Below, piece after piece: positions 25,068 through 26,096 of a DNA stretch of 32,000 bases; within the stretch, counting starts at the first letter, position 1; each line of letters opens with the position of its first letter. Where the stretch lies: NCBI RefSeq assembly GCF_000009965.1, contig NC_006624.1, positions 660,001-692,000 of the forward strand. Reading direction: 5' to 3'. Below the pieces are notes generated by a model, which had not been told where the DNA came from, ran no database searches, and worked only from the letters and a program-made list of their open reading frames with translations. The DNA is from Thermococcus kodakarensis KOD1. GTDB lineage: Archaea > Methanobacteriota_B > Thermococci > Thermococcales > Thermococcaceae. Made by a program: the position numbers and the translations under genes.

Positions 25068-25204
25068 CGGGATAAGAATACACGCTTTTCCAGAAAAGGT
25101 TTTCGCAAGAAACAGTTGGGGTACTCGGGCAAGCTTCGGAAGGAAAAAGTAATCAGTGCATTTGCTCTGGTATCCTAACATTCAGTCTAGAGACTGAGTA
25201 CTAG

Positions 25205-26045
25205 TTAGGGGCTTTAGAAAAAGCTCCACCAAAAGCTTGAATGTCTTCGAGAATTGGCTTAATGCAGTTAGATTCTCTTGATTGATGGACAGAGAAGTGG
25301 GGGTTTTCTTCCTTTTTAACGCCCTTCGGGTGATATGCTGTGAGTAACCCTCTTAAAATTGCTTATTAAGCGAGAATCTATCAAAAGGGAGCGAGGATGC
25401 AAGACATTAACTTTTCAAACAGGTGAGTTAGAAGAGTCATGAACATTTCGTCATCCGTTTAGGACGCTTGAACATTAGTGAAAGCGGCGCTGAAACTTTG
25501 CTTTGCAAAGTTTCATCAAAGTTCGTGGTTCTTGATTAGAAGGTGGTTCTAGGGAGATTTTCATTCACAGGAACTCACTGCATGAGTGTGAATTCAATTT
25601 TAGTAAGGGTTCTCGATGTGAGTTTGCTTTTTAATCGACGCCCGTAGGGCGTCAAGGGGAGAAAACTCCCTTTAGAAGGCCAAAATTGGGAAATTCATTA
25701 ATGTTTAGCTTGAGTATTTTGAAAATCCTTGTGGTGGAGCAATTCTAAGAAGAACCACGAGCCTTGATCAAACTCAATGGAACTACCGTTCCGTGCGTTG
25801 AAGCGGAGCTTCAACGTCGCGCAGGAAACTTTTGGAAAAAGCTTCACCAAAAGTGCTCCCTTTCTTTTGACTTTCCTGTCAAAGAGTGTATTCTCTACCA
25901 GAAAGCAACTTCACGCGGGTTTACTCTCAACATCTCTTGTTAATTGTGATTTTGACTTTCTTTTTAGTGCCCTTTGGGCACTATATTGTGAGAAAATCCT
26001 GCTAAATCAGCAGATTGGTGCGTAAACCCACTCAAAAGCCAGCTC
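25205..26045. repeat. degenerate repeat / hairpin cluster (noncoding, low G+C)
   Basis: Three kinds of element are present.
- Three copies of CTTTTTA(A/G) immediately followed by a GC hairpin with a GCCC-N3-GGGC core: 25312-25332, 25627-25653 and 25960-25981.
- The box GAAAAAGCT(C/T)CACCAAAAG at 25217-25235 and 25835-25853 (18/19 identical), plus an inverted, diverged copy at 25728-25745.
- Wider alignable modules at about 25212-25400 and 25829-26045. Confidence 0.6.
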
Positions 26046-26048
26046 GCT

Positions 26049-26094
26049 AAAAACGCATACTACTCTTCCGCCAGCGCTTGCGAAGCAAGGGCTG
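26049..26094 (-). terminator. hairpin plus T5 tract downstream of the tRNA
   Basis: Two nt after the CCA end on the minus strand lies a hairpin (26094-26072, 4+5 bp with one mismatch, GAA/TTC loop). The run TTTTT follows at 26053-26049. Confidence 0.4.
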
Positions 26095-26096
26095 AA

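Follow-up and report, generated by a model that had tools for sequence, protein, structure and literature searches.

The 32,000-nucleotide stretch of the Thermococcus kodakarensis KOD1 genome analysed here (the window, in which position + 660,000 gives the KOD1 coordinate) contains a non-coding block at 25181–26096 (KOD1 685181–686096) that fills the 916-bp gap between TK0785 on one side and the 3′ end of the tRNA-Met gene TKt11 on the other. The CCA of TKt11 is encoded at 26097–26099, 2 nt from a repeat that occupies this end of the block, and the block is probably a nested, tandem and partly decayed array of genus-wide selfish, non-autonomous DNA elements of ~300 bp with hairpin ends, which are mobile or recombining. 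An earlier note, made from the sequence alone, had described the region as low in G+C, without a credible open reading frame (ORF) and adjoining a tRNA(CAU) gene. The longest ORF inside the block has 82 aa, its G+C content is 0.41–0.43 (20 G+C among the 60 bases at 25681–25740) and that of the flanking genes is 0.52–0.59, and both Rfam and the annotation place the tRNA (TKt11, minus strand) at its border.

The units were resolved by comparing the KOD1 block with loci next to the XPD gene in Thermococcus metagenome-assembled genomes (MAGs). Although shuffled and inverted, the segments common to these loci show higher conservation than the genes around them. Each unit is a quasi-palindromic, non-coding sequence of ~300 bp with two related but distinct ends. 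The outermost part of each end is a hairpin whose stem has 10 bp, and behind it comes a conserved tail of ~20 nt. A type I unit joins an alpha end to an inverted beta-like end, and a type II unit joins a B or gamma end to a delta end.

Alpha end: hairpin GAAACTTTGC-N3–4-GCAAAGTTTC and tail ATCAAAGTTNGTGATTC.
Beta end (beta-like, inverted): CAAACTTCGC..GCGAAGTTTGATCAAGGTT.
Gamma end (beta-like, inverted): CAAACTTTTC..
B end (beta-like, inverted): GAAGCTTTT-GGA-AAAAGCTTCACCAAAAG.
Delta end: CAGCCCTTGC-TTCG-GCAAGCGCTG and GCGGAAGA; the stem contains a C.C mismatch that is conserved.

The alpha and beta-like ends are related over ~45 nt, and their tails are true inverted repeats. The terminal hairpins span 24 nt, with GTAG or GTGA lying ~10 nt to the 3′ side, in the tail and not in a 5′ head, and a few of them are alpha/beta hybrids with mismatches. 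The interior of type I units is poorly conserved and contains GGGTTTAC, a GC hairpin of 6–10 bp and GTAAACCC. Inward-facing ends are spaced 250–299 nt apart in 61 of 90 pairs, giving a sharp peak, and alpha/alpha units are outnumbered 68 to 1 by units that combine an alpha end with a non-alpha one.

On the plus strand, the KOD1 block reads U1, U2, a 42-nt insert with a displaced remnant of U2, U3, two nucleotides and the tRNA CCA.

25207–25491: U1, type II, degenerate, oriented as U3, recognised by direct repeats D1, D2 and D8, the alignment of modules 1 and 3 and weak nhmmer matches.
25217–25235, 25320–25332 and 25381–25392: B box, central hairpin CGCCC-TTC-GGGTG and TCAAAAGGGAGC of U1.
About 25446–25487: conserved insert of ~33 nt that breaks the U1 delta tail, which ends in GCGGCGCT immediately before the U2 alpha hairpin.
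25492–25774: U2, type I, the best preserved unit, recognised by inverted repeat I1 and an nhmmer score of 134.
25492–25514 and 25515–25533: left end of U2, alpha hairpin GAAACTTTGC-TTT-GCAAAGTTTC and tail ATCAAAGTTCGTGGTTCTT.
25637–25653: central hairpin of U2, GACGCCC-GTA-GGGCGTC.
25750–25774: right end of U2, inverted beta tail AAGAACCACGAGCCTTGAT and arm CAAACT.
25775–25816: mini-insert of 42 nt with two GC-rich hairpins, GGAAC-TACC-GTTCC and CGTTGAAGC-GGA-GCTTCAACG.
25817–25824: TCGCGCAG, the displaced loop and arm remnant of the U2 beta hairpin.
25825–26094: U3, type II, recognised by nhmmer matches, end typing and alignment with relatives.
25825–25845 and 25846–25853: left end of U3, B hairpin GAAACTTTT-GGA-AAAAGCTTC and tail ACCAAAAG.
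25968–25981: central GC hairpin of U3, GTGCCC-TTT-GGGCAC.
26072–26094: right end of U3, delta tail CTCTTCCGC and delta hairpin CAGCGCTTGC-GAA-GCAAGGGCTG, adjoining the tRNA.

This arrangement accounts for the repeats that the earlier note had pointed out. Its three direct copies of CTTTTTA fused to a GC hairpin (CTTTTTAACGCCCTTCGGGTG at 25312–25332, CTTTTTAATCGACGCCCGTAGGGCGTC at 25627–25653 and CTTTTTAGTGCCCTTTGGGCAC at 25960–25981) are all present and hold the central hairpins of U1, U2 and U3; the hairpin module gave 2 matches against 0.09 expected. The 19-nt box at 25217–25235 and 25835–25853 (2 matches, 0.04 expected from shuffles) is the B end of U1 and U3, its inverted copy was located at 25728–25740 with 92% complementarity, and the alignment of modules 1 and 3 extends over about 230–250 nt. 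Two features had gone unnoticed: the modules all belong to a single dispersed family, of which they are three copies, and a further, better preserved repeat has a 25-nt inverted repeat that joins 25509–25533 to 25750–25774 (2 matches, 0 expected). These 25-nt arms of U2 (I1) are 88% complementary, and the predicted fold of the unit is one long hairpin on either strand (z = −7.1 on plus, −6.7 on minus), in which no bulge-helix-bulge site for the splicing endonuclease is apparent.

The position of the 42-nt insert is fixed within terminal hairpins, between GCGA or GCAA and AGTTT, where it turns the hairpin into a four-way junction. Alpha or beta hairpins also hold it at this position in loci L029, L132, L069 and L083 and in T. 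onnurineus (L149), and both of its stems show compensatory changes between loci. Since adjacent units apparently have hairpins in common, the exact borders where one unit meets the next are ambiguous. A second mini-insert of ~33 nt (GGACGCTTGAACATTAGTGAAAGCGGCGCT) interrupts delta tails in KOD1 (about 25446–25487), in L011 (4881–4960) and in T. celer (L152); the KOD1 and L011 copies are 90% identical, while the genes of the MAG that carries L011 reach only about 75% identity. A delta-like match at window position 8974 lies inside a coding sequence and was discarded as chance.

The family is widespread in the genus. A metagenome scan with the 19-nt alpha motif GCAAAGTTTCATCAAAGTT returned at least 120 stretches with ~95 true alpha ends, which, among the matches listed, lie on Thermococcus-like contigs with 45–58% G+C. 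The metagenome loci were thus chosen by their alpha motif, and the counts of ends, units and tRNA flanks given below and above rest on the matches listed together with the isolate loci. A profile hidden Markov model of the unit (nhmmer) produced 396 strand-hits in 107 sequences, and the metagenome loci listed and the isolate genomes together hold hundreds of copies. Isolates with units beside tRNA genes comprise T. stetteri, T. peptonophilus, T. celer, the genome represented by L154 and, in degenerate form, T. onnurineus. The search for copies in other Thermococcales that the earlier note had proposed was positive in Thermococcus metagenome loci and isolate genomes.

Among the loci sampled, 69 of 120 distinct blocks adjoin the 3′ end of a tRNA gene. 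The terminal hairpin begins 1–5 nt past the CCA, behind tRNAs for Pro, Arg, Gln, Val, Glu, His, Leu, Met, Trp, Cys, Asp and Lys, and this linker varies in sequence as well as in length. Either end of the unit may face the tRNA, in both orientations: 74 distinct tRNA 3′ flanks include 21 alpha ends (a count inflated by the sampling), 9–11 beta, 5 gamma and at least 11 delta ends. The KOD1 tRNA-Met flank is of the delta type, and the same delta end stands behind at least 11 other tRNA genes. One block lies directly behind the Pab160 H/ACA small RNA (sRNA) gene, and units are also found within or beside the terminal hairpins of resident copies. A KOD1 short-read contig (Logan assembly) stops ~50 nt past TKt11, within the delta end, which is the effect expected of a repeat. 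The KOD1 tables contain further long gene-free tRNA flanks.

TKt05: gene-free 3′ flank of 400 nt.
TKt06: gene-free 3′ flank of about 255 nt.
TKt21/TKt22: gene-free 803 nt, common to both convergent genes.
TKt34: gene-free 3′ flank of 244 nt.
TKt35: gene-free 3′ flank of 1207 nt.

The lengths of these flanks hint that the TKt11 locus may not be unique in the KOD1 genome. After tRNA-Arg genes, a GC-rich and structured-looking sequence, ...CTCTGTACTCTCAAACCCCCGGAGTGGGGCTTCGCCCCAC..., was seen directly before the terminal hairpins in L141, L053, L063, L069, L082, L113 and L126; in L141, for example, it lies downstream of tRNA-Arg(tcg). Rfam gave no match to this sequence, which may represent a small RNA that lacks annotation or a further module of the repeat system.

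Comparison of relatives revealed turnover of units. In T. peptonophilus and T. stetteri the order is tRNA, U2, U1, without the U3 and the 42-nt insert present in KOD1, and the 33-nt insert in the U1 delta tail is likewise extra in KOD1. U2 is orthologous in KOD1 and T. peptonophilus, with 82% identity. The interior of the T. stetteri U2 is only 51% identical to that of KOD1 while the ends match, which points to its replacement by another member of the family. The MAG loci L083 and L002 differ by the same combination of a type II unit and the 42-nt sequence at the same place in the beta hairpin, in L013 the tRNA and the block are inverted relative to KOD1, and a 780-bp block stands behind tRNA-Leu(GAG) in L001, where L010 has only a hairpin remnant. 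Close relatives thus differ by units that were gained, lost, replaced or inverted.

We next considered whether the conserved folding belongs to DNA or to RNA. The covariation of hairpin stems that the earlier note had inferred from three copies holds across the family, with compensatory changes in the terminal hairpin and 24 different arm sequences in the central hairpin. The following pairs occupy the variable positions of the terminal stem.

Stem position 1: G-C in 33, C-G in 15.
Stem position 8: T-A in 40, C-G in 11.
Stem position 9: G-C in 40, T-A in 11.
Stem position 10: C-G in 45, G-C in 5.

Covariation alone does not decide between RNA and DNA, because a DNA palindrome predicts the same pattern. 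The 82% identity of U2 between KOD1 and T. peptonophilus compares with 79–86% at the third codon positions of adjacent genes, and since the two levels are similar, the divergence of U2 is close to neutral. The folding of the two strands is about equal, with an advantage for the alpha-sense strand in only 42 of 63 units. Among the 63 units, 34 have a central loop of GAA, GCA, GGA or GTA that is closed by C-G, and 12 more have the complements of these loops; d(C-GNA-G) is an exceptionally stable DNA mini-hairpin motif. The differential RNA sequencing (dRNA-seq) tables of KOD1, a single data set from one organism, list no transcription start in the block between 685070 and 686219, so that the start mapping proposed in the earlier note gave a negative result. 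Rfam found only tRNA in the whole window at gathering thresholds, at 24900–26400 in E-value mode and in 18 related loci. Taken together, the lack of a start in the block, the neutral-like divergence of U2, the ~41% G+C, the near-equal folding of the strands and the GNA loops favour DNA.

[quoted passage not shown] The MITE-like option named in the earlier note is the closest to the evidence insofar as the units are dispersed, non-coding, ~300 bp long and A+T-richer than the genome, have imperfect terminal inverted repeats of ~45 nt, fold into a long hairpin, and occur in many intergenic copies with nested insertions in many Thermococcus genomes. That option does not extend to a target-site duplication or a related autonomous element, since no duplication was found in the flanks of ~75 units and no cognate insertion sequence (IS) sharing the ends in ~0.9 Mb of flanking DNA; moreover, unlike in MITEs, the termini are themselves hairpins and are placed very precisely at the 3′ boundary of tRNA or sRNA genes. 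REPs and BIMEs, which in bacteria are mobilised by RAYT (Y1 HUH) transposases, resemble the family in being palindromes outside genes that follow the 3′ ends of transcription units, frequently as inverted pairs, with stem covariation, no target duplication and possible side roles in termination, and recognition of folded single-stranded DNA would fit the GNA-triloop signature. However, REPs measure 20–40 nt and have a 5′ GTAG head, whereas the present units measure ~300 bp and have two hairpin ends and a central hairpin, and to our knowledge no RAYT is known from archaea. Palindrome-associated elements derived from IS200/IS605 (PATEs, for example in Haloquadratum) are non-autonomous, have hairpins at both ends, make no target duplication and are known in archaea. 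Recognition of their ends takes place on one strand, and these ends do not form inverted repeats, in contrast to the truly inverted tails of the family. The family also lacks a constant tetra- or pentanucleotide as target, because the bases that separate the CCA from the element vary.

The likeness to integron attC and to dif/pdif modules lies in arrays of modules split by hairpin sites that neighbours appear to share, in the alpha/beta hybrid hairpins, in the replacement of modules at the same site and in inversions, and the conserved C.C mismatch of the delta stem recalls the extrahelical bases of attC. Unlike integron or dif arrays, these cassettes are gene-less and stand behind many tRNA genes and not at one locus, and no integrase or attI-like platform was identified for them. 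Family 2 casposons and the tRNA-targeting integrative elements of archaea also insert at the 3′ ends of tRNA genes, but they carry genes and overlap or duplicate part of the tRNA (14–15-bp duplications or att repeats), whereas the units are gene-less and their junction lies after the CCA with nothing duplicated. Three further candidates were rejected. IS6 ends have the GCAAAGTTT motif in common with the family, but the defining GG tip and cTGTt are absent; a replication origin with an array of origin recognition boxes (ORBs) is not indicated, as no cdc6/orc1 was found among the ten neighbouring genes checked and the box is only loosely mini-ORB-like; and the repeated intergenic regions sRk48/52 and sRk49 of P. 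abyssi differ in sequence from the family. A full-text search that included literal sequence strings, with subscription literature and ISfinder outside its reach, found no published description of the family.

The genes around the units were searched for a mobilising enzyme. Clustering of 360 neighbouring ORFs gave housekeeping families only, plus one integrase overlapping a tRNA gene; no transposase recurs among the neighbours, and no long end-to-end pair encloses one. A 3-kb pair of delta ends in L081 was dismissed as an autonomous element, as it encloses ribosomal and housekeeping genes. In L068 a fragment of a DDE transposase, IS6-like by eye, lies at 1242–1529 between two repeat blocks on a low-G+C contig and is probably an incidental IS insertion. 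In L051 the N-terminus of an ORF at 782–1708 (minus strand) reads through the T-arm of a tRNA (MAGRAGFEPATFGSGG...) beside a tRNA that bears a unit, an arrangement typical of an SSV-type integrase gene that overlaps its tRNA attachment site.

We consider that the units are probably selfish, non-autonomous elements that would be moved or exchanged by a trans-acting enzyme. Such an enzyme would recognise the terminal hairpins when these are folded into single-stranded or cruciform structures of DNA; it could be of the HUH/Y1 type or a site-specific recombinase, and hairpin-mediated recombination or gene conversion offers an alternative route. Hairpins at the tips, GNA loops, hybrid hairpins and missing target duplications suggest an enzyme of this kind, or hairpin recombination, and not a DDE transposase. 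The 3′ flanks of heavily transcribed stable-RNA genes might be a preferred target or might merely be tolerated, and any benefit to the host, such as a hairpin with a T-tract acting as terminator or insulator, would be secondary.

Several observations weigh against this interpretation. No direct repeat lies beside the ends in the flanks of ~75 units, so that the canonical test for MITEs fails, and ~0.9 Mb of flanking DNA (flanks, not whole genomes) contains no mobilising enzyme or autonomous copy. A clean insertion, with an empty and a filled site and exact borders, was not captured among the loci compared, and the hairpin may be an old resident of tRNA flanks because 'empty' flanks such as L010 keep hairpin remnants. 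Searches of PLSDB and INPHARED with the block (blastn) gave no match, and in viral contigs the beta and B motifs have no matches while those of alpha and delta are chance occurrences in unrelated phages. The proportions reported here are biased because the metagenome sample was selected with the alpha motif. Finally, the KOD1 tables list antisense or orphan transcription starts in other tRNA 3′ flanks: TKt34 and TKt35 have antisense starts at a distance of exactly 26 nt past their 3′ ends, and orphan or antisense starts lie within the long 3′ flanks of TKt05, TKt06, TKt22 and TKt39, so that some copies may give rise to RNA. Some copies may hold putative outward-reading promoters, because 26 nt equals a linker plus one terminal hairpin.

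As a tentative extension, which we hold to be possible at best, Thermococcus could have an unrecognised hairpin-site recombination system in which gene-less cassettes of ~300 bp are inserted, exchanged and inverted at hairpins of folded single-stranded DNA that mark the exact 3′ boundary of stable-RNA genes with heavy transcription. R-loops or single strands exposed during replication might provide access, the putative enzyme would be HUH/Y1-like or integrase-like, and outward promoters at the unit ends might generate the antisense-tRNA transcripts of KOD1.

It is unlikely that the elements are instead cis-acting terminators, 3′-processing or protection signals, or insulators between convergent genes, kept by selection and not by mobility. 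A device of this kind would work in both directions because the unit is symmetric, and its placement is suggestive, with a hairpin 1–5 nt past the CCA at dozens of tRNA genes and at one H/ACA sRNA gene, units that often fill the exact gap from the tRNA to the stop codon of a convergent gene, and hairpin remnants that remain at tRNAs without units. Of 41 alpha, beta and delta flanks, 13 have a tract of four or more T at +43 to +47, and most have one within about +80; the KOD1 tRNA is followed by a T5 tract at a distance of ~45 nt. Yet intrinsic termination in archaea needs oligo-T tracts only, and a terminator has no need of a 300-bp palindrome, two specific end types and a conserved central hairpin. 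Many tRNAs of the same contigs have no element, ~40% of the blocks are not beside a tRNA, the number, orientation and identity of units differ among close relatives, and the interior of U2 diverges at the synonymous rate.

That the units are genes for, or sources of, non-coding RNA is more doubtful still. They would give rise either to long, rod-like RNAs that share a transcript with the tRNA until RNase Z sets them free, or to outward transcripts antisense to the tRNA. The covarying stems, the slightly better folding of the alpha-sense strand in 42 of 63 units and a B box that in some copies, such as that of L011 with AGCTTTTATAAAAAAAGCTT, looks like an archaeal TATA box would suit such a role. 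So would the starts 26 nt beyond TKt34 and TKt35 and those in the TKt05, TKt06, TKt22 and TKt39 flanks, if these flanks hold members of the family. The authors of the KOD1 dRNA-seq study also mention AU-rich small RNAs. At the KOD1 locus itself the structured-RNA family envisaged in the earlier note is weak, with no start listed from 685070 to 686219, low G+C and a U2 at approximately synonymous divergence. The family matches nothing in Rfam and has ~41% G+C, whereas the structured RNAs of this organism are GC-rich; its GNA triloops mark DNA hairpins and not RNA hairpins, and the near-equal folding of both strands is what a DNA palindrome would give.

The other origin proposed in the earlier note, a scar of repeated integration and excision by plasmids or viruses that target tRNA genes through SSV-type integrases, is highly improbable: tRNA 3′ ends are classical integration sites in Thermococcales and the integrase-like ORF of L051 starts inside a tRNA beside a unit, but we reject this reading because there is no att duplication, the tRNA 3′ end occurring once in the 32-kb window with up to 3 mismatches allowed, and the block has no integrase fragment, ORF homology or similarity to plasmids, phages or viral contigs, while the same units stand behind many different tRNAs with their junction after the CCA and not inside the tRNA.

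An array of selfish hairpin-ended elements would bear on the genus as a whole. T. kodakarensis is the main genetic model for hyperthermophilic archaea, and no annotation covers the long stretches without genes that follow its tRNA genes. If all such stretches belong to one hairpin-ended family, much of the "intergenic" DNA of the genus would be explained, together with some assembly breaks and local inversions at tRNA loci and perhaps the antisense-tRNA transcripts. Non-autonomous elements of archaea are poorly catalogued, and the combination of hairpin ends, an exact position after the CCA and no target duplications would imply a mechanism of transposition or recombination not yet described in archaea. 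The units are also potential substrates for recombination and could drive the known chromosome shuffling of Thermococcales.

The genes that surround the block, and one further feature between them, are as follows; gene coordinates in the KOD1 dRNA-seq tables agree exactly with the window at the offset of 660,000.

KOD1 682805–684718: TK0784 (XPD), from the KOD1 annotation.
Window 24705–25181 (KOD1 684705–685181), minus strand: TK0785, transcription start at 685070, from the annotation and the dRNA-seq tables.
Window 25076–25206, minus strand: region upstream of TK0785, outside the repeat family, with the perfect palindrome CAGTCTCTAGACTG at 25186–25201.
Window 26097–26204 (KOD1 686097–686204), minus strand: TKt11, tRNA-Met(CAU) with a 32-nt intron, from the annotation; transcription start at 686219.
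Window 26260–26880, minus strand: TK0786, rhomboid protein.

The Rfam tRNA match (53.4 bits at 26100–26204, minus strand) places the 32-nt intron of TKt11 after the CAU anticodon. ARAGORN overlooked this intron-containing tRNA-Met(CAU) or miscalled it as a tRNA-Ser(aga) with an intron at position 36, both in the window and in L002, L003, L013, L147, L149 and L154. The upstream region of TK0785 is 90% identical to that of T. stetteri, and the third codon positions of the neighbouring genes are 66–75% identical; the region with the palindrome CAGTCTCTAGACTG is probably a regulatory site unrelated to the repeat family. The annotated ORF of TK0785 encodes 158 aa, and its T. stetteri orthologue has 120 aa. 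Because of the length of this orthologue and the transcription start mapped at window position 25070, the annotated start of TK0785 is probably too far upstream, and the gene is likely to be leaderless and to encode ~120 aa, with a weak match to Big_14. The longest ORF of the XPD gene begins at 22724 (window 22724–24718), while the annotation and the mapped transcription start both give 22805, and with these two coinciding the XPD gene appears to be leaderless.

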